In this document: positions 2-41,559 of the stretch, in pieces
Numbering within the stretch: position 1 is the first letter of the stretch
How the letters are laid out: every line of letters starts with the position of its first letter
Source of the DNA: Amoeboaphelidium occidentale
Taxonomy: Eukaryota
Assembly (NCBI GenBank): GCA_023515795.1
Contig: JALGPX010000095.1
Coordinates: forward strand, 1 to 42,875
Reading direction: 5' to 3'
Length of the DNA stretch: 42,875 bases
Position numbers and translations under genes: made by a program
The notes under the pieces: model-generated
Told to the model about the DNA's origin: nothing
The model's database searches: none
Seen by the model: only the letters and a program-made list of their open reading frames with translations

Positions 2-737
2 CTGAAGGAGAATACGAGACCGGAGATGATCAAACTGAAGAATGAATTGGAAAAGAACAAGCAGAGGCAGCTTTTCAAAATTGTCAATGTCTTGGTGGCA
101 CATGCTGAAGCACTTCGTGGAACAAAGACTGGCGTTCCTTTGATCGTTGCAGGAAATCCTACATTCTCTCCTTCAGTCAAAGGCCAAAGAAGTGTTGCTC
201 CAAAAAGTTTACTCAGGTGGTTGTCGAAATTCTTTACGGTACTGGTTGTTGATGAATACAACACGTCAAAGGTAATACTTTGTTGCTCAGAGAGTTTGAA
301 CTTCTTAGAATTGTCCGATGTGCTTTNNNNTGCTGAAGCACTTCGTGGAACAAAGACTGGCGTTCCTTTGATCGTTGCAGGAAATCCTACATTCTCTCCT
401 ACAGTCAAAGGCCAAAGAAGTGTTGCTCCAAAAAGTTTGCTCAGGTGGTTGTCGAAATTCTTCACGGTACTGGTTGTTGATGAATATAACACGTCAAAGG
501 TAATACTTTGTTGCTCAGAGAGTTTGAACTTCTTAGAATTGTCCGATGTGCTTTAAGCCTCTTGACAATTACGGTAATGAAGGAACTAGAATGTGGAAGT
601 GTAAAGATTGCAAGACTTCAACTGGACACGATCTCATTGTTAACAAGGATGTATCAGCGGCTAATTTCATGGCAAATATCGCAGTTTATCACTTTTTAAC
701 AAGAGAAAGACACCCCAGTTTCAGTAGGCAAGTCTGA
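2..737 (+). mobile_element. Fanzor (eukaryotic TnpB/IS200-IS605-derived RuvC nuclease), 5'-truncated by window edge; one 37-nt intron; internal gap-flanking duplication
   Basis: The frame is open from nt 2 and reads GNPTFSPSVKGQRSVAPKSLLRWLSKFFTVLVVDEYNTSK (RuvC-II Glu motif). Removing the GT..AG intron 500-536 (its duplicate is 272-308) joins TSK to NCPMC...MWKCKDC (C4 Zn finger), IVNKDVSAANFM (RuvC-III Asp) and RERHPSF*. This motif order is typical of TnpB/Fanzor C-termini. Confidence 0.88.
103..554. repeat. 224-bp duplication flanking an N-gap (103-326 vs 331-554), probable assembly artefact
   Basis: Near-identical copies on either side of nnnn (327-330), differing by about 4 substitutions. 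Confidence 0.85.
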
Positions 738-824
738 GCCAAAAAAATGTGACCGCTGCATAAAAGACGCAGCTTTTTCTATTCACAAAATAAAGCTTTT
801 CCTTTTCAGCGAAATTTCTTGTGA
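721..824 (+). ncRNA. candidate Fanzor omega-RNA region
   Basis: Lies directly 3' of the Fanzor ORF. Nested stems tgtga(748-752)/tcaca(783-787) enclose gctgc(755-759)/gcagc(769-773), followed by a T5 run. Position matches known omega-RNAs; boundaries are unknown. Confidence 0.3.
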
Positions 825-830
825 TCAAAA

Positions 831-1556
831 ATGGACGTCGACAACATGGACTTTCCGCTTACCGGCACCTTAGACTCAGTAGATAGAGTAAATGAGAAGA
901 TGCAAAGTCTGGAAATAACGGAACAATTAACTGGAAGTAAATTAGATTTTGAAAAGTTCAAGGACGCAATCGTTCTTTATCCTGCTTACTTCGATGCTCG
1001 CAAGTCAGAAAAGCAAGGAAGACGAGTACCGCGGGACTTGGCAATTAACACGGATGTTACTAAAGGCGGCATACCTTTGACTGCCTGGCAACTTGCGATG
1101 GCATGTGGAAGACTAGACATGCACGTTTTAGTTGAAGAAAGGAAGCGATACCCGAGAGATTATTGGGGTTACGGCAGAATACGCGTTAAACCGAAGGGTT
1201 CTTCTGTAATGAAAAGTAATTTGCTGTTTCAAATTTGTTTACATGTAGAGCGTCAATTGCTAAAAGAGATAGCCAGAATCTTGCCTACCGTTCAAACGGA
1301 GGTTTTACAGAGTTTGGAAGCCAAGGCAAAAGAGAGTGGCGTTGATATCCCAAAATCTGCCTACTCCATCCCTATTTCACCTAATTACTTTCCTTATGGT
1401 AATGATCCTCTAGCGTCCACTGCTCTGAAGTACGAGTATGGTGCTTTGCCGATGGAAGATTTGAGACCTAAAGTTACAGCAAAAGAGCAAACATCGTCTA
1501 CTACAGGGGCATCTTCCAGTTCTACTTCTAAAAAGTCAAAGAAGAACAGGAAATAG
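831..1556 (+). CDS. SRP19: signal recognition particle subunit SRP19/Sec65; probable in-frame 33-nt intron 1216-1248
   Basis: Motifs LYPAYFDARKSEKQGRRVP and KRYPRDYWGYGRIRV; basic C-terminal tail. Removing 1216-1248 gives MKKRQLLKEIA. Confidence 0.92.
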   Translation: MDVDNMDFPLTGTLDSVDRVNEKMQSLEITEQLTGSKLDFEKFKDAIVLYPAYFDARKSEKQGRRVPRDLAINTDVTKGGIPLTAWQLAMACGRLDMHVLVEERKRYPRDYWGYGRIRVKPKGSSVMKSNLLFQICLHVERQLLKEIARILPTVQTEVLQSLEAKAKESGVDIPKSAYSIPISPNYFPYGNDPLASTALKYEYGALPMEDLRPKVTAKEQTSSTTGASSSSTSKKSKKNRK

Positions 1557-4598: not shown

Positions 4599-5490
4599 AT
4601 GACGATGTTCGATCATTTGGAGCCAGCATCGGAAGCAGCGTCCACTGCCGGCGCTTTCTCATGGAATTATGTTAAACCGGCAGCATTAGAATGTCTCAAG
4701 TACGCTGTGTTTTATTCCGGTGTACATCTTGCAGCTGAGTACGGGGTTATCAGAAGACGAATTTCTGCGTCCAAGCTTGCTTCACTGAAGTGGTCAGAAA
4801 GAGTTTACATTGGCGAAAAGGTCTGTTCCACACTGAATGGATTGATTACAGGGCTCATAGGTAAATGTTAATCTTTGGGATAAGCTGAACTTGTTAGGAA
4901 CTTACATGTTGTTCGTGGCACCTGGATTTCAGGGTGAATTTGGAGTATTTCGATTCTATCCAAGGATTCTCGATATGGTCTTTAGCTCCTATGTTGGATA
5001 TTCTATTTATGACATGGGCACCATGGTTATTGTAGGCGATGAACCAATGGCAATGTGGTTTCATCATATTGTTGGTGCTTTCGGGGCCTTCGCGATGATG
5101 ATGTACAGACAGGCTGCGTTCTTTCCAGTCACTTTTCTCGCAACGGAACTCACGGTTGTTCCTACTAATTTAGTATGGTATTTAAGAACTCTAGATGTTG
5201 ATAAAAAATCTGCACTTTACCGTTGGAATGTCACAATCAGGAACATTGTATTCCTCACCGCAAGGTCAATTGTGGCACCAGCTTGTTTATCATATGCGTT
5301 ACAACAAGTAGAGGGCGCTTCTATTTCTGAAAAGATTTCTCGTTTGAAAGCAATATTTGCAACTTTACCACGCTTTTTGGTCGCAGGAACGGTGCTAAAT
5401 GTTGTGGGCTTGGGCGCATTAAACACATTCTGGAATATCATGGTTATTCGTAATGCCTTGAAAAAGTCAAGAGGCGCAAAGAAGGAATAA
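4599..5490 (+). CDS. TLC (TRAM/LAG1/CLN8) domain membrane protein, TMEM56/TLCD4-like; intron 4861-4897
   Basis: Motifs EKVCSTLNG, GYSIYD, MWFHHIVG, TELTVVPTNLVW and LNTFW; multiple hydrophobic helices. Confidence 0.85.
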
Positions 5491-16282: not shown

Positions 16283-17950
16283 TCAGTTTTTAAAGGAGTC
16301 TGTGAGGAACCATTCCATTGCAAAGGCAGGTGATATCAACTTGCAGAAGTGACATCCCTTAGCTATAATCAGCCTCGTACTTGTCATCAAAGTAGGAGAT
16401 CTGAGCTCACAACCAGAATCTGTTTTGATCACTCGCAAAGGCTCAAAGAATATCCAGCGAAACCCATTGATCATTGGGCCAATGTCTTTTCCTGTGTAAA
16501 GAATGGTACCCTTCTTGATGTATCTGTCAAGAGCACGTTTTGGAGATACCATAAATTCAGAATAATTAGATATTTGTATGTCATCAGAGTGCTGTTGCAA
16601 TAATCTTAAAGAATAACGAATTGCCATATTGTTGATTTTTCCGCACCAAGAATCTCCAACACCACCATCAGGAGAAGCATCTGTATTGTAATATGTGATG
16701 CCTTTCAAACCAGCCGCAATGTATGTCTTTTCTCTTGAAGATATTTTTGCTTTTATCTGCGTAGCTGAGATTTGTGGCGTGACGGTTTCAGTCGAGTCTT
16801 TATCAACTTTTCGTGTGTATTCTGATGGATTATAAATATTCTCTGAGAAACTCCTGAGCGTCAATCTTCTTTCTGTAGAGTCAAAAGAAACAGATGGGAA
16901 ATGCCCATTCTCAATATACGATAAATGCATCTCATTGCGTGACTCGATATCAACTGTGACATTTGTTCCATTTAAAACAGTATTCTGATACAAAGCAGGC
17001 CCAGAGTTAATATAAATAGCCGGGCCGTCTTTCCACATAGAGAACTCTTGGCCTGTTCTTTTCACAATGTCCTCAACGATGGAGTCAGAATCGTTCTTGA
17101 AAGTACCAGAAATAAACAACTGTGCATACTCCATCCATTTGGAAGCAAGAAAGCATTTCGTCTGATCAACAGTTGTCGGATAAGAATCAGAAAAGTCTGC
17201 ACACGGCGGTCTCAAGCCTGGATGAGATTCAACAAACAGAACTTGAAGGATCTTATCAACGTAAACTTTCGTGGCTTTCTTGAATCTATCAAAATCTTCT
17301 AAACTGTCTTCGCCTTCATCTAATAGCGAATGCTTTCTCAAAAACATATTTACCAAACTAGAAATCATCTGATGGCCCTTCTGCTCTTCATGCTCAGGGT
17401 TAAAATCATGCACCGTAATAATCTGAGGATGCGGAGAAGCTGCAAAACTTCTATGCGACATTCCGTTCAACAGAACAAAGTCGTGCTTGTTGTTTAAATG
17501 CCTAACGGAGAACTCATCCAAAGCGAAACCAAACACACGATACAAACCATCCAAATCTCCTCCAATATTCAAAACAGGAACGTCTGAGCCAAATTCTTCA
17601 GGTAAAACCAACGAATATCCAAGAACTATTACAGCAGCAATTCGAGATTTCGCTGACTTCAAATGCTGCCTTATTTTCAATGCAGCCTTCTTGCCATGCG
17701 CCACCAGCACTAGCCTTTTGCCAACCATTTGATCGCTTAGCCCTTCATTCATAACCAACTGGCGCATCTCAGAAGGCTCCTGTACGCGTGAAACAAGCGC
17801 TGCATTAACGTCAACGTAAGCGTATTGCGAGCGATCGTATTCCGGATAAGACGAGCACACGATGAAATGCAAAGGCACGGATGATATAGTCTTGCAGAAA
17901 ATGTATGAAAACAGTAAAGCAGACAACAGAGCGGAATTTATAAGTTTCAT
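16283..17950 (-). CDS. secreted alpha/beta-hydrolase-like protein of unknown function (paralog of 39730-41559); nucleophile Ser apparently lost
   Basis: Signal peptide; LVAHGKKA, IGGDLDGLYR, NGMSHRSFA and C-terminal HFCKLISPAFAMEW. Confidence 0.75.
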   Translation of the reverse strand: MKLINSALLSALLFSYIFCKTISSVPLHFIVCSSYPEYDRSQYAYVDVNAALVSRVQEPSEMRQLVMNEGLSDQMVGKRLVLVAHGKKAALKIRQHLKSAKSRIAAVIVLGYSLVLPEEFGSDVPVLNIGGDLDGLYRVFGFALDEFSVRHLNNKHDFVLLNGMSHRSFAASPHPQIITVHDFNPEHEEQKGHQMISSLVNMFLRKHSLLDEGEDSLEDFDRFKKATKVYVDKILQVLFVESHPGLRPPCADFSDSYPTTVDQTKCFLASKWMEYAQLFISGTFKNDSDSIVEDIVKRTGQEFSMWKDGPAIYINSGPALYQNTVLNGTNVTVDIESRNEMHLSYIENGHFPSVSFDSTERRLTLRSFSENIYNPSEYTRKVDKDSTETVTPQISATQIKAKISSREKTYIAAGLKGITYYNTDASPDGGVGDSWCGKINNMAIRYSLRLLQQHSDDIQISNYSEFMVSPKRALDRYIKKGTILYTGKDIGPMINGFRWIFFEPLRVIKTDSGCELRSPTLMTSTRLIIAKGCHFCKLISPAFAMEWFLTDSFKN

Positions 17951-18354
17951 TTGACAAGTAAAACAAAATTACAAGAGAATTACATCATCGTAATTTTAAC
18001 GATTGCGGGGCAAAAGATCGCACTGTTAAGACTCCACTTCTGTTGATCTTTAGATACTTTGAGGGCCTATAGCTCGTTTGTATGATGCCGAGTGTGACAT
18101 GCTCCACACTAGTCTTAAGTAAGCTTACATTGCGAGCGACAAAACGCACCGAAAGCATTCTTAACCGATAAGATCACCGAATGCGTCTATTGCCTTGCTA
18201 CTAAACCAAGTGCCTGAGAATGTACCACTGTAACATCCACCCACTTAAAAAATCGCGCGTCTTAAGAGTTTCAAACTTCCGTCTTAACCGTTCAAAGTCT
18301 CGAGGCAACCGAAGTAGCTGCCGATCAAAAAAATTTTTCTTTCAAAATTCGAAG

Positions 18355-19323: not shown

Positions 19324-21943
19324 TTACAGACTCTCGTGCAAGACATTGCTGCACATTTGAGCAACTTGCGCCATGGGTTGTCTCTTGTAGGGCGAAGGAT
19401 TCCAGCATCGTTCCATGGTAGACATGATGGCATCAAGATAGGGATCTGCTTCTCTTCTGTCTGCCAATGCTCGGGGGAGTTGAGGTCTTTCGCCTCTGAT
19501 TACTCTGTTCTTGATATCCTCTAAGTCATTAACATCCCACCAAGGTATTCTTCTGTAAATAAGTTCAAAAACAATCATAGCGAATGCGTAAATATCAGGA
19601 CCACAAGCTTCCTCCTTCTGTACTTGATCTCCTTTGTTGATTTGAGCTTTTTTAAGTACTTCAGGTGCAGCATAAACTAGAGACGCTCCTTTCACTCGAG
19701 ATCTTTCATATGCTTTGACTCTTAACAGGTTGGTATTGTATATTTCTGTTACACCAAAGTCACATAAAACAGCAATTAATTGACCACTTGCATCATCTCT
19801 GTCCATCAAGATATTTCCAGGCTAAAATAATTAGAATTTTTAAATTATGTCGTACCTTGACATCGTTGTGAGTTAGACCGATTTCGTGCATATAAGCTAG
19901 AGCAGAAGAAATATCACCCATCATTCTGATAACAAACTTTGGTGTCCATTGATTCTCCGAAACCAGTGCTTCAGCATGTTTCCTATTATGAATAAGATGC
20001 TCCAAAGAACCAAGTTTGTAGTATTTCATTATAATTATTGGAGGCTCTGGACAATAGCCCCGGAGCTGTATGATGTTTTTGCTCTCATGCAGCAACCACA
20101 TTACTGCGACCTCTTGTTGGAATAAGTTTCTCATGTCATCCTCAGAAGCTTCATCAAATTTCTTCATAATTTTTACTACAATTCCAGAATCTCCTCCACT
20201 CCTTTGTAGTGCTTGTTGGTTTGTTAGCTGGCCCTTGTATATGACGCCGGCTCCTCCTTCTCCAATCTCCTCATCAAAAACGAAATCCAAATCTTTCATC
20301 AACATCAAGAATCCAGGAAGAGCCAAAGCTAAAAAAGATCAGTCATGAATTCTTCAGAAACTGTACATTTTCCTTGTGTCAACAATGTTCCCATGTTTGT
20401 TGTGAAGATATTTTTAGTTTCCTCTGGTTGAGCCGTTCGTATTGTTGAAGGTTCTTGGCCAGCAATGATATGGGACACAAAATAATTCTCAGCCGAGGCC
20501 CTGGCTTTACGGTTCCTTCTTCTGGATATTGTATAGTAACATGCAGTCCCAATTGCAACGATTGCTAAAACCAGTACTCCAAGAAGCGCTCCAATTACAG
20601 ACGCAGGTTGTTCGTTGATGAACTCCTGTAATGTTCGCCTAGGAGTATCTACTGCCGCCTCGACTACTGTCGGCTTAGGTCTCAAGCTTGTTGATGTAAC
20701 TCTCCTCGTTCTTGTAGTAATATTTACATAATCCAGGTAAGAAGATAAATCTAGAGCTCCCTTCAAAAGTTTCTTGTTTGGTATCAAATCGCTACCATTG
20801 AATAATCTTCCACCAAAAATTATGGCTGATGACTCTTGCTGTATTCCAAAAGAATTCGAAAAGCCCTGCAAACCAGCATTGCTAAGAGAGAATACTCTGC
20901 TTCTCTCTGTATCAATCAAGTAATCGTTGTCATACGTTGTTGTAAAGTATTGCTCAAGGCCACCTCCAAAAAGCAAAACGTGACCCCTGTAACTCATCAA
21001 AGTTGGGCCTTCTAGCTTCGGGACGTTTTCAAAGTACAGTGCCTCCATGCTCTCAGAATCGTCAATTTCGCTGATTCCTCTTGCTCGTATCACATCTGAT
21101 ACATCGTAACCAACATGCCCAACGTCACTTGAAGTGAACAAGCCATAAATGAATAGAAGATTTTGTTCAGTTATAACCATTTTCAGCAAGTCAGCTGCTC
21201 TGTAAGACGGTTCTGTATTCAAAAGAGCCCAGTCAACTGTATAATCGACCTCGTAATGGCCCGCGTCAACTCTGAAAGTCAGAAATTATAAAGTCAATTA
21301 GAAACTTACACATATAAACTAGTTTCTTGTTGGTATCTAACGAAGATCTTATTTCCTTTCACGACCGCAGCATCCACATCGCCACTATGTACTCCCCCAT
21401 GATTCTCCGAGACTACGAGCCAAGAGAGGTCAAACATATTGAACGAAAAAATTCTCTTGTTCAATGTTCCAGAAGAACAAGTGTAACCACCAAGTAGAAA
21501 CAAGTAAGAATTCATCAGAGTAACGTGCGACATCTTGAAATCTCTTATCGTCTCAGGTACTCTAGCTATATCCATTACAGCTGATATATTATTCCATGCC
21601 CACAAAGAAGTCTCACTTCCGCTCGTCAATGACGGCACCTCCATTATAAAGGCGTCCAGCATACAACTTGGGTCGGTCGCATTATGATCATATCGACTTC
21701 CTATCGAGAAGATCATGCTAGCATCTAACCTCATTCCAGGGTATAAGGTTCTTCTAAGTGATCCAGCTGGTATCTCAACAATCCTCGCTTGTTGTAAGAA
21801 CTGCGTTGTAGAATCATCAAACTCTTTGGCGACCATCCATTGCACATCTTAAGCGTCAAGCAGTACAAATCTGATAAGTTACTTGTACAAGTCGTCATAC
21901 ATATGAGGAGCGCTAGTATCGGTATCAAACCTGTTTTCGGCAT
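19324..21943 (-). CDS. single-pass receptor-like TKL-group kinase with kelch-like ectodomain; introns 21848-21882, 21272-21309, 20329-20366, 19822-19855
   Basis: Signal peptide MPKTGLIPILALLIC; kelch-like LFLLGG, LLFGG and IIFGG motifs; TM VIGALLGVLVLAIVAIG followed by RRR; kinase motifs GEGGAG, VVK, HNDVK|PGNIL, CDFG and YAAPE. Confidence 0.88.
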
Positions 21944-25476: not shown

Positions 25477-28445
25477 TTAGCTTTCACACAACTCTTTGTG
25501 AAATTTGATGTAATCCGCAGAAAAACACTTGTTGCATCTCTCACAGTGACTAAACTCACTCTGATGGTGCCAAAGCTTGCAAGCAAAACAAAAGTAGGCC
25601 GCTAAATCCCTGCAGCACCTTACGCATTTCTTTCCATTTTCTTTCGTGGGCTTAAACTCCTTGTAACAATAAAGACACTTACAGCTTGCAATCTCCGATG
25701 CCACATGGCCTGCTTTTTCTTGATGGCATTGAAGGCATGAGTAATAATCATCGCAGCAATCAAATTTTAAGTCCACATGATTTCGAAAATGTCTACATCC
25801 GATTCTGTTTGGATAATATTCTCCATCTAAAGACCAGCAAAGTTTCTTTGTGATGACTTCTTCGTAGCAATTTTGCTTCTTGTAAAAGATAACAACGATG
25901 TTAGAAATTGGATTAATATCTCTCACACTAGCGCTAGCAATTTGCTTCAAACCCATTACAAGTTTAGAGCAAGACTCCGGATGACGGATAATGTAAGACA
26001 TTCTAGCTTGATCTCCAGAAATGTTTAAATCAATGTATGCCTGATCTTTAGACTGAGAATATGATTGACCAGCAAACACACCATAGCTTAACCCTGCATT
26101 CGTGCCATATCCTCTGCCTGTTGATTTACTATTCACCAACTGGTAAGCCTTTGCTATTTCTGCGTTCCACGAGTTTCCAAAACTAGCTCCACCTCCAAAT
26201 GTCGTTCCAATATTAACGTCAACACCAGAAACATTGTTTAAACCAAACATGATATTATCCATATTTACATTGCCTTGTGTTGTTCCAGTGCTAAATGGAA
26301 AATCATGGCCTGATGATAGCCCAATGCTTTGACCACGACTAGAACCTTGCCCAACATTTGAAGATTGTCCAACATGATAACCTTGGGCTATAACGCTGGC
26401 TTTAGAGAACTCTTCTTGGAATCCGACAAGAGTATCCAAATCATTAACAACGATAACAGATTTTTTGTGACTCCAGTAGAATTCATTGAACGGGTTGATA
26501 GATGAGTATGGAATGACTGCACTATGGAACGATGCATGTGGCAGCAATTGATTAGGTCCCGATAGCTGAAACGAGGACCTAAACTTCAGCCTGTTGTGTA
26601 AATGATGAAGGAGAGAGTAGACTGAATTCTGAGGAATGCTCAACTTTCCATAGCCTTTGATTTGCCTGCGAATTAAATTCCTTTCAAAATTGGCGTTCAG
26701 TAAAGCCTGATCACTTTCAAGTCGAACAAAATGGATCACCTTGTTGTGCTTCTTGAAAGAGTGAACTATACTATCAACTACGCTCTCAATAGCGGGGCTA
26801 TAGACCAAGTCATCAAATACCCATTCAATGGATCCAGTGACAGCAGGGGCAAGTCCTTCGTATATAATCCTGGAACTTAAAACACGGCGAAGTCCCTCAG
26901 AAAAAGTAATTTTCGCAGCAGAATGTGGATTGGTATTAATTACCTCTTGGGCCATTGTGATCGCAACACTGAACGCAACTCTTCGTAAATCTGAAATAGA
27001 CATGTTGTGAAGCCGGTTGTATAACGCAGTCCTTTCTTCATCAGATAAGTATTCTGGCTGAGAAGCCAAAGATCTAACTTTCTCCACTACGTGAGGCTGA
27101 AATGCCAAACCTTTCATCTCGCTTACGGTCTTTTTGATAAAGTCACATCTTCGTGGTAACGACAAATCATAGACTTTTATAATTGGGAACTGCATTAATA
27201 TTGAAGGATAAGGAGCCATAATCATCGTGTCCTTGACCATTCCAGTGGCTGCGGATGTACANNNNNNNGTAACGACAAATCATAGACTTTGATAATTGGG
27301 AACTGCATTAATATTGAAGGATAAGGAGCCATAATCATCGTGTCCTTGACCATTCCAGTGGCTGCGGATGTACAGAATATAAAATATTCAAAATCAATTC
27401 GGCCTAAATGAAAATAAATCTGTCTCAAGTACTGGTCAGAGTCTTTTCCGCTGAGAATCAAGTCAAAGTTATCCAGAAGTGTGACAGATATTTTCCCCAA
27501 CTTCGCTCCTTGTCTCAATGAAGCAAAGAACTTTGGGACAGTCATGGAGTAATCATTTCCTTTTGCATTAACGACAAACTTTCCTCCATCGAAATACTTG
27601 GACGGAAATTCCAGGGGCTCAGAATCAATATTTCCACTTTCAGCCGGCTCAAAAGACTCTCTAGAGTTCTTTCTCGCAGCTTCTTCCTTTACAGGCATTT
27701 CTTCAGACTCTGGATACTGCACTACATTTACCAACCATGGGGCAACCGTCATTAGCGTATGAATAAACACGCGACAGAAAGCAGTCTTTCCGACTCCTCT
27801 TGGCCCTGTTGCAATGAAACCTGATGATCTACCCCAAGGCAATTTAACTTTTGTAAATGCATAATCATCGCGTCTGTTCAAATCTTGATTCTCCTTCAGC
27901 TCGACAACTAGCCACTCTTCCAATATTCTTTGTAATTCAACTTTGTCAACAGTTACCCATGAACTCTTGAGCGCTTCATCGAGAATTTCGTAAATAATGC
28001 AACGCCTCAATGCAAAGAGATGCTCTGGAACACCATCAATTACTCCCTCACTCTGAAGCAACCAAGCCAAAGCAAGGCATGAGTGTGAAATGGTAACATC
28101 ATCAACAAATTCAACATGAAATTCCGATATTTCTATGGCACTATCAGCATCCAAAGTGATCTCAGTTCCTTGCTCAATGATCCCGCCATTATCAGCAACG
28201 ATATGCAACAAATGGTTGAAGCATTGTCTGTGCCAAGTAAACTTGTCTATACCCGACAAATTGAAATCGCCTCCTTCAACAAAATGGTTCGCTACTGACC
28301 ATTCACGAATCTTGTTCTCAAGAAAGCCAACAATCAAGCGTTCCCACTTAGACGCATAGTCCTGCCAGACGAGACGGAGATCTTTCATATTATTGAGACG
28401 CACTATCACGCGAAACCGGCACTTCTTCAGAGATGGTTCGGTCAT
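25477..28445 (-). CDS. ~951-aa degenerate NSF/Cdc48-like AAA protein with Gly/Ser/Asn-rich insert and C-terminal CHY zinc finger (split only by a gap artefact)
   Basis: Removing the 113-nt gap duplication gives one 2856-nt ORF. It has Walker A GPRGVGKT (27783-27806), Walker B-like VTLLDNFD, a second VIVVNDLDTL and the CHY pattern GCRHF...CCDDYYSCLQCH...H...CLYC...CVRC...YFCFAC. Confidence 0.75.
27156..27374. repeat. 106-bp duplication flanking N-gap (27156-27261 vs 27269-27374), probable assembly artefact
   Basis: Copies differ by one substitution. Confidence 0.85.
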
Positions 28446-36063: not shown

Positions 36064-36294
36064 ACGCAAACACTTAAGTCCTCTTCACAATCGAGGACTG
36101 TGACTTTTATAGATAGTGCGATTACGGCTAGCACGATGATAGAGCAATGCGATGAGGGAAGCTCACGGNNNNNNNNNNNNNNNNNNNNNACGCAAACACT
36201 TAAGTCCTCTTCACAATTGAGGACTGTGACTTTTATAGATAGTGCGATTACGGCTAGCACGATGATAGAGCAATGCGATGAGGGAAGCTCACGG
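36064..36294. repeat. 105-bp duplication flanking N-gap (36064-36168 vs 36190-36294), probable assembly artefact
   Basis: Copies differ by one substitution (aatcgagg/aattgagg). Confidence 0.85.
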
Positions 36295-39729: not shown

Positions 39730-41559
39730 TTACAACCGCAAGCCGTCTGTATAAATCCATTCAAGAGCTCTAGCAGGGGATAATAATTTACAGAAATGGA
39801 TTCCACCGGCAGCTTTAATGAAGAAATCAACTGGAAACATCATAGTTGGTGATTTGACTTCAAAACGATCTGGCTTGCCATCACTTCCACTTTGTTGAAC
39901 AGCATCATAGTTCAAGTCAGTCCAAATCCATCTTGCACCATTTAGGATTACTTGATCTTCTGTGTTGAAACCTAATGGGACACCGAAAGATTGAAAACGC
40001 ATAGCCATTGGTTCTGTAAATTTTCTTTCATCTTCTGAGCCAGCATTTCTAACAAGAGGCAGACCTTCTGTCTTGTACAAGTCATTAAGAATTTTTTCAG
40101 TTTCGCTCCAAGTTCTATCATTCTCTTCGACAGCCATCAAACCAATGCGTTTCAAAGCCCAATTCCAAGAATACAAATTCATCTATATGTTAGTGTCTGA
40201 AGCAAGATATCATTTTACCTTTGCGCATCTCATTTTATCATCAGAATCTAGATATTCATAGTTTGCAGTTTTGTTGCCTGCAGCTCTGTGTGCTGCTTCA
40301 CGGGACAAGAGCTTTGCTTTGATCTCAGATGCACTAACAGGTGCTTGTAAAAGAGTATCTTTTGAGGACTCATATTTGTTTTCACTCACAGAATTTACCA
40401 ATAAAAGGCACTGATCGTCAGGATGGCGACATCTTGTTCTAACATCAGGAAAGTGCAATGGAAAATGAACCCAACTCTTGTGGATCTCATTTCTAGAAAT
40501 AATGTTCACATTTCTTGCTATTAGACTTCCCATATCATTTTCATCGTCACCAACCATATGTCTCTGGACAAACATTGCCCAAGGTGATGATAACCAACAT
40601 GCATCCTCAACAGTTTCAGGCTTCGCATCATTAAAATCAGAGCATGGTCTGTGAAGTGAGTATGAAGCTTCAAGAAGCAAGCTGTCGATTATCGGGCCGA
40701 GAAGTCTAGAAGTCTCTTCATGATGCAAGTTTAACAATTGTTGATAATTTTCACTATTGCTAGAGAGCAGAGCGTACATTAAATCTGCGGTTTCTTTGTA
40801 TACTTTGTTATCTTTCTGTAAAGGAGTGAAGTCTGCCTTTTGAATCAAAGCGGAACCAGCATTCAAACTCGCAAAGCTTCGGTGCGAAACACCAGGAAGA
40901 ACCAAAACTTTGAATTTGGTAGAGCGTGTAGTCGCTTCATAGTATAACTCTTCTGCGTATTTGAACACTCTTGTAACACCGTCGAGATCACCACCAACCA
41001 CTAGAACATCATGATCGTCATGAGCAATAGTGTAATTTTTGAATTCAGGTGTAGTTACAGCGCCAAGAAGTGCAACTTTCTTAATAGGTGGAACATCGAT
41101 ACTTCCTGCTTTACAGTGCATAAGCCAGTCTTGAACTGTGTACGCTGCTGAGGAATGAGCGACTAGAACAACTTCATCAAGACCATCCATTTGATGCAAC
41201 ATTTTCTTGTAGCTTGACCATACACGCTTCGTAAAGGCAGAATATTTCGAACCAAGAGGAAGCTGGAAACCTGAGTGGTCTGAAACCAAACCAACTATAG
41301 CTGATACTCCGCGACTTTGGCCCTGAGCCTGTAGAGTATTAATAAGAGGATAATAATCAGTCAGTTTAAAATTCTCAGTACCAACAGCAAAAATAAAGCC
41401 AACTTTAACATTCTCAATGGATTTCGGGGAGATAATTATAACATCTTGTGCTTTTGAATCACCCATTTGATACTGATCCACTTCTCTGGGCAAGCATGCA
41501 GCAAGAGCAACCATGAACAGCAGCAGGTACATCCTTACCGACGTCGAGCAAAAATTCAT
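39730..41559 (-). CDS. secreted alpha/beta-hydrolase-like protein of unknown function; intron 40183-40218
   Basis: Signal peptide; LVAHSSAA (putative nucleophile), VGGDLDGVTR, PGVSHRSFA and C-terminal GIHFCKLLSPARALEWIYTDGL. Confidence 0.8.

Follow-up and report, generated by a model that had tools for sequence, protein, structure and literature searches.

A Fanzor1-like gene fragment with a likely spliced 37-nt intron at the start of an Amoeboaphelidium occidentale contig

Introduction

What kind of gene occupies the first 737 nucleotides (nt) of contig JALGPX010000095.1 of Amoeboaphelidium occidentale (GenBank assembly GCA_023515795.1), and is it read across the short interruption near its 3' end? 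The window analyzed here is the whole stretch from position 1 to 42,875 on the forward strand. The original prediction, made from the letters alone, saw in this gene an intron-containing Fanzor, a eukaryotic omega-RNA-guided endonuclease related to TnpB. Our analysis indicates that the window very probably begins inside a Fanzor1-like gene, toward its 3' end, and that the RuvC-II Glu, a four-cysteine (C4) zinc finger and the RuvC-III Asp of this gene are distributed across a likely spliced intron. The gene is likely one of the drifting copies of a multi-copy selfish element, and members of this element that are still intact would be guided by an omega-RNA to cut DNA. This reading is carried by the motif order, the register of the junction, the family assignment by profile and fold, the presence of several diverging copies, and the RuvC-I motif of a 96%-identical relative. 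The early fungal-lineage host that had been proposed is borne out by MDM31 in the window, by a near-identical family copy annotated in the aphelid Amoeboaphelidium occidentale, and by a published Fanzor table that lists the model in this species.

Family identity

Searches with exon 1 returned 58 representatives (clustered at 50% identity) at E values up to 0.001, a clade that is mostly unannotated and has an atypical RuvC-I motif. When the profile of this family is compared with the PDB, two Fanzor1 proteins lead, namely PpFz1 of Parasitella parasitica (PDB 9CF0-9CF3; E 5e-12) and SpuFz1 of Spizellomyces punctatus (PDB 8GKH; E 6e-6) (Saito 2023, PMC10432273; Xu 2024, PMC11423790). Matches to the IS200/IS605 TnpB of ISDra2 (PDB 8H1J; E 0.0037) and to mimivirus Fanzor2 (PDB 9B0L; E 0.061) are much weaker. 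Fanzor1 also leads in the fold comparisons: the top six Foldseek matches of the AlphaFold model of P0003 (653 amino acids (aa); predicted local distance difference test score (pLDDT) 83) are Fanzor1 chains, with TnpB and Fanzor2 at ranks 47 and 23, and the top four of the model of P0060, which is 96% identical to exon 1, are SpuFz1. A profile and structure search of this kind, which had been suggested as a check, therefore places Fanzor1 first, with the limit that likeness was tested on P0003, P0060 and the family profile and not on the joined window peptide. The family Glu and Asp align to SpuFz1 chain positions 935 and 1000, 65 apart as counted on the printed alignment; the catalytic residues E541 and D606 named in Saito 2023 (PMC10432273) are likewise 65 apart.

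Two published definitions bear on the assignment. Bao & Jurka 2013 gave the Fanzor/TnpB motif as D-X(125,275)-[TS][TS]-X-X-C4 zinc finger-X(5,50)-RD, and after splicing the window gene reads TS-K-N-C, four Cys and then KD, the first Asp lying outside the window. In the motif-final pair, 31 of 41 relatives have K as the first residue and the other 10 have R, and P0060 has the first motif Asp at 28 and the Thr at 206. According to Jiang 2023 and Yoon 2023, the canonical RuvC-II Glu of Fanzors is replaced by Gly or Pro, and another Glu, six residues ahead of the zinc finger, serves as the alternative; in both of our family alignments the Gly and the rearranged Glu are invariant, and the E-x6-C spacing appears in the window gene only once it is spliced. 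The motif order and the TnpB/Fanzor identity that had been proposed are thus upheld. In the ESM Atlas, P0001 groups with eukaryotic clusters, most commonly of Zoopagomycota, and with giant-virus clusters. A quick tree of 44 rows recovers the family as one group beside DPG-type rows (Shimodaira-Hasegawa-like approximate likelihood ratio test 98; locus L029 inside), although this tree has two TnpB outgroups, long-branch joins and no solved Fz1, leaves out short family fragments and loci lacking an intact motif open reading frame (ORF), and cannot place the family relative to Fz1.

Three observations weigh against our reading. The separate exons have no significant sequence match in Pfam or the PDB (best relevant Pfam PF07282, E 0.27). 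The DPG motif at RuvC-I, described as near-exclusive to Fanzors (Yoon 2023), is absent from P0060, which has DFG, and occurs in 9 of the 31 family rows (of 38) that reach this column, RuvC-I of the window gene itself lying outside the window. Finally, the stretch at 738-830, where an omega-RNA would be expected, folds no better than its shuffles and has no Rfam match. On sequence and predicted fold, the gene is Fanzor1-like, strict membership of the Fz1 clade being unproven.

Splicing of the 37-nt segment

The segment at 500-536 starts with GT, ends with TAG and lies in phase 0, and its excision joins DEYNTSK to NCPMC and keeps the frame open to the TGA at 735-737; the last-exon frame (537-737) encodes 66 residues with two CxxC pairs and NKD. 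We built a profile from 37 uninterrupted relatives and scored against it 25 in-frame GT-AG junctions and 38 one-base frameshift readings. The junction at 500-536 is the best at 185.4 bits. The next in-frame GT-AG junction reaches 154.6 bits, the unspliced frame 111.6 bits and the best of the frameshift readings 175.1 bits, and on these scores we rejected the competing junctions and the frameshifts. By itself, the last exon scores 64.6 bits on the profile, and it played no part in finding the relatives used. In the spliced register a Cys stands two residues past TS[KQ]; we inspected 57 relatives, and 49 of the 53 that carry the motif show this spacing.

Comparison of close copies points the same way. 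Three JGI relatives called as unspliced (P0001, P0060 and P0002) read through a segment of equal length and then stop, and the +1 frame of each tail would allow NCPMC, a compatibility at the protein level only. The window and P0060 are identical at 86 of 90 positions in the exon and at only 6 of 12 intron codons, and in five of the six pairs formed by the window and these three relatives it is the segment, not the exon, that diverges faster. The last exon recurs as the separate short ORFs P0061 and P0062, and the gene model of P0063, an annotated protein of Amoeboaphelidium occidentale, contains this junction too; the model is a prediction and not a set of reads. Seven candidate host introns in the window measure 29-38 nt; six were chosen by eye from 30 heuristic candidates and one, in ALAS, by hand. 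Removal of three of them restores a recognizable motif. The 37-nt intron is thus likely spliced, with the position, phase and host-like size originally proposed.

Two further observations concern this position. When the intron is read in frame, a Cys and a Leu occupy the positions of the following zinc knuckle in all four close copies, and in a post hoc test this reading scores above shuffles. This hints that the intron was gained through a tandem duplication at an AG|GT site, but its DNA matches the next 37 nt at only 13 of 37 positions. The distant relatives P0036 and P0059 have Val after a TS[KQ]-type motif, no knuckle, and an ORF that soon ends, possibly reflecting an intron at the same place.

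Integrity of the window copy and its sisters

The RuvC-II Glu, the four Cys and the RuvC-III Asp are all present in the window copy, which agrees with the claim that the RuvC-II and RuvC-III residues are intact (codons in Table 1); RuvC-I lies outside the window, and its Asp is intact in P0060. Within the 18 residues past the RuvC-III Asp, however, the window copy is unlike all three of its nearest exon-2 relatives at five positions. It has a private Phe (codon 666-668) at a site that is Asn in 31 of 41 family members, and a private Arg (codon 702-704) at one that is Gly in 38 of 41; none of the 41 has Phe at the first site or Arg at the second. Because these private changes fall at two family-conserved positions, we doubt the full integrity of this copy, which may or may not be active as had been proposed; its catalytic competence seems to us somewhat doubtful. 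On the stretch that both cover, P0062 reaches 50.2 bits and the window copy 40.3; the window copy is on a par with P0061 (57.1 vs 56.3 bits), which has lesions of its own.

The sister copies diverge from the window gene to different degrees, with identities of 96%, 96% and 73% in exon 1 and of 81%, 83% and 89% in exon 2, and the private changes would fit transposon copies that drift individually. P0002 and P0001 agree at 28 of 81 positions upstream, 68 of 90 in exon 1 and 11 of 12 intron codons, which suggests mosaic elements with a common 3' end and divergent 5' halves. In the annotated model of P0063 (375 aa) the Fanzor tail is joined to an N-terminus unrelated to it and to another zinc-knuckle fragment that differs from the first; either a truncated copy or a mis-model would probably account for this protein.

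Carrier element and omega-RNA

By analogy with SpuFz1, the RNA bound by the spliced full-length product of such an element would come from the 3' end of the element (approximately 738-830, possibly overlapping the end of the ORF), and the variable tail of this RNA would correspond to the host flank upstream of SRP19. The complex might then cut empty alleles next to a target-adjacent motif, and repair of the cut would favor copying of the element. As described in Saito 2023 (PMC10432273), SpuFz1 encodes its omega-RNA at the 3' end of the element, a position matching the 93-nt spacer of the window. A repeat search of the window gave no omega-RNA signal, and a 25-nt 3' probe occurs once within the window. 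A sigma-70 scan was also empty, this bacterial model being not relevant to a eukaryotic host.

A metagenome scan for close DNA relatives, covering 21 of 64 parts, found at least four loci, those listed being distant, and viral scans returned distant Fanzors or nothing. The prokaryote scan gave two short contigs, L028 and L029, with Fanzor-type ORFs on 1-3 kilobase contigs of bacterial metagenome-assembled genomes, and these are likely eukaryotic or viral contamination. None of 905 candidates proved to be a longer relative of P0060. At L003, an ORF (approximately 150-1040) lies directly upstream of an uninterrupted Fanzor. This ORF has IS630/Tc1-like DDE motifs, and such an association with Fanzors is known.

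Alternative explanations

On a bolder reading, the window gene would supply the 3' portion of a fusion between a FEN1/XPG-like 5' flap nuclease and a Fanzor of a distinct lineage outside the published FZ1 and FZ2 branches (rearranged Glu, mostly non-DPG RuvC-I, NKD), and RNA-guided cutting coupled to resection within one protein would drive homing. Two of the 58 representatives, P0014 (1069 aa) and P0055 (1300 aa), share an N-terminal region (residues 1-330 and 1-300, respectively), for which Pfam XPG_I_2 gives a weak match in P0014 (E 0.037) and no match in P0055. The heads of these long relatives fall with Atlas XPG_I clusters at 0.86-0.88 and match FEN-1 weakly (E 0.5-1.4), and one further search of them gave no XPG/FEN1 signal. 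Row 630 of Supplementary Table 1 in Saito 2023 (PMC10432273) is a 1219-aa unassigned Amoeboaphelidium occidentale protein whose start resembles that of P0055 by eye. Our literature search gave no paper on Fanzor together with XPG and, among the papers listed on Fanzor and flap endonucleases, none that treats such a fusion, as judged by titles and the openings of abstracts. We consider the fusion tentative and, for the window gene, unlikely; some long members of the family may nonetheless be FEN1-like/Fanzor fusions and, if so, would represent a natural cut-and-resect editor.

Far less probable is a domesticated, single-locus Fanzor that is active in the service of the host beside SRP19, a strong form of the original view that the gene is host-adapted. 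The host-like intron, with a 3' end resembling that of the host intron at 4861-4897, the retained catalytic residues, the synonymous character of three of four allele differences and the tight 93-nt spacing to SRP19 would all suit this explanation. There are, however, several diverging copies, one of them chimeric or truncated, conserved sites of the window copy carry private residues, the synonymous excess has a P of 0.04-0.10, and introns are common in mobile Fanzors according to Jiang 2023 (PMC10530073). Host adaptation in this sense is left unsupported by the existence of these copies, and we prefer a drifting copy of a selfish element.

The scaffold gap within the gene raises a third alternative. 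Positions 103-326 and 331-554 (224 nt each) flank NNNN and, in a self-comparison of the window, differ at four sites, of which 173/401 is Ser/Thr and 211/439, 235/463 and 259/487 are synonymous. The other two N gaps of the window (27262-27268 and 36169-36189) likewise lie between overlapping ends, of 106 nt and 105 nt with one difference each. Because the same overlap pattern recurs at these gaps, we read the 224-nt copies not as paralogues, an origin that we rejected, but most likely as unmerged contig or haplotype ends, that is, as an assembly overlap of two alleles. A genuine tandem duplication that breaks this Fanzor copy would accommodate the four differences between the arms and an N gap whose true length may not be that of the assembly; the overlap with single-nucleotide differences at both other gaps makes it a very improbable account. 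The original tally of three synonymous differences and one Ser/Thr stands, although the coding constraint drawn from it is weakened by the comparison being one of two assembly ends and by a neutral probability of at least three synonymous changes in four of 0.044-0.098, depending on transition bias, which is in the expected direction. The overlapping ends at 27262-27268 and 36169-36189 would also give false duplications in gene models.

The least probable alternative, that the 37 nt are not spliced and the gene is a frameshifted pseudogene or requires ribosomal frameshifting, can draw on an in-frame segment that resembles a zinc knuckle beyond shuffles (4 of 500 reach its score) and on frameshift readings just ~10 bits lower on the profile, and is highly improbable given the canonical GT/TAG ends and host-typical size, the exact family register on removal, the fast-diverging segment in three relatives, and the database gene models, themselves predictions, that carry the same junction.

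Relation to published systems

The window model is already on record. Row 631 of file 3 (node80) in Supplementary Table 1 of Saito 2023 (PMC10432273), one of 38 Amoeboaphelidium rows and labelled '-', is a 232-aa hypothetical protein of Amoeboaphelidium occidentale with the coordinates 2-737:+. Its letters, with XX for the gap, agree with ours by eye, and it is spliced at the junction proposed here. The spliced gene was thus not, as had been suggested, easily missed, and intron-bearing Fanzors have been published as well. Among them is CrFNuc of Chlamydomonas, which according to Jiang 2023 (PMC10530073) has spliceosomal introns, as predicted here, and, as a point of difference, is Helitron2-borne and showed no cleavage in its authors' assay.

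Like PpFz1 and SpuFz1, the window gene has Gly at the canonical RuvC-II position with the rearranged Glu placed six residues ahead of the first CxxC, a C4 finger, the RuvC-III Asp and an Arg-containing C-terminal tail. Unlike them, it has NKD rather than NRD and an intron at the boundary of RuvC-II and the zinc finger, and its family has mostly DLG or DFG rather than DPG at RuvC-I. In the structural alignments with these two proteins, identity is ~11-15%. It shares with TnpB and Fanzor2 the split RuvC and the zinc finger, whereas a typical TnpB uses the canonical Glu. As a find, the gene is of small significance, since earlier work already records Fanzors, the introns in them and how abundant they are in this aphelid genus. 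What is added is that an entry left unassigned by Saito 2023 can be recognized as a genuine Fanzor1-like 3' fragment, which the assembly overlap has probably obscured.

Layout of the locus

Table 1. Features at the start of the window.
Feature	Coordinates	Strand	Remarks
Penultimate exon, 5' open, 90 aa	2..271	+	Helix, lid and RuvC-II strand; Fanzor1 Gly; rearranged catalytic Glu codon 254-256
Intron, first assembled copy, 37 nt	272..308	+	Identical to 500-536
Last-exon stub ending the left contig	309..326	+	
Scaffold gap NNNN	327..330	.	Between overlapping contig ends
Exon, second assembled copy	331..499	+	RuvC-II Glu codon 482-484
Predicted 37-nt phase-0 GT-AG intron	500..536	+	
Last exon, 66 aa	537..737	+	C4 zinc finger Cys codons 540, 549, 600, 609; RuvC-III Asp 648-650; stop TGA 735-737
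Spacer, 93 nt, stop to SRP19 start	738..830	+	Expected to hold the element right end and omega-RNA
Host SRP19 gene, downstream neighbor	831..1556	+	PF01922, E 3.4e-17

A perfect 11-nt inverted match (1-11 vs 167-177) lies at the start of the window and may be due to chance. Elsewhere in the window, two similar-looking ORFs at 16283-17968 (-) and 39730-41559 (-) both have signal-peptide-like starts, the former having no Pfam match at E 1e-5. At 19324-21848 (-) is a multi-exon receptor-like kinase with a predicted membrane segment, its kinase domain assigned by Pfam and the remainder by eye.
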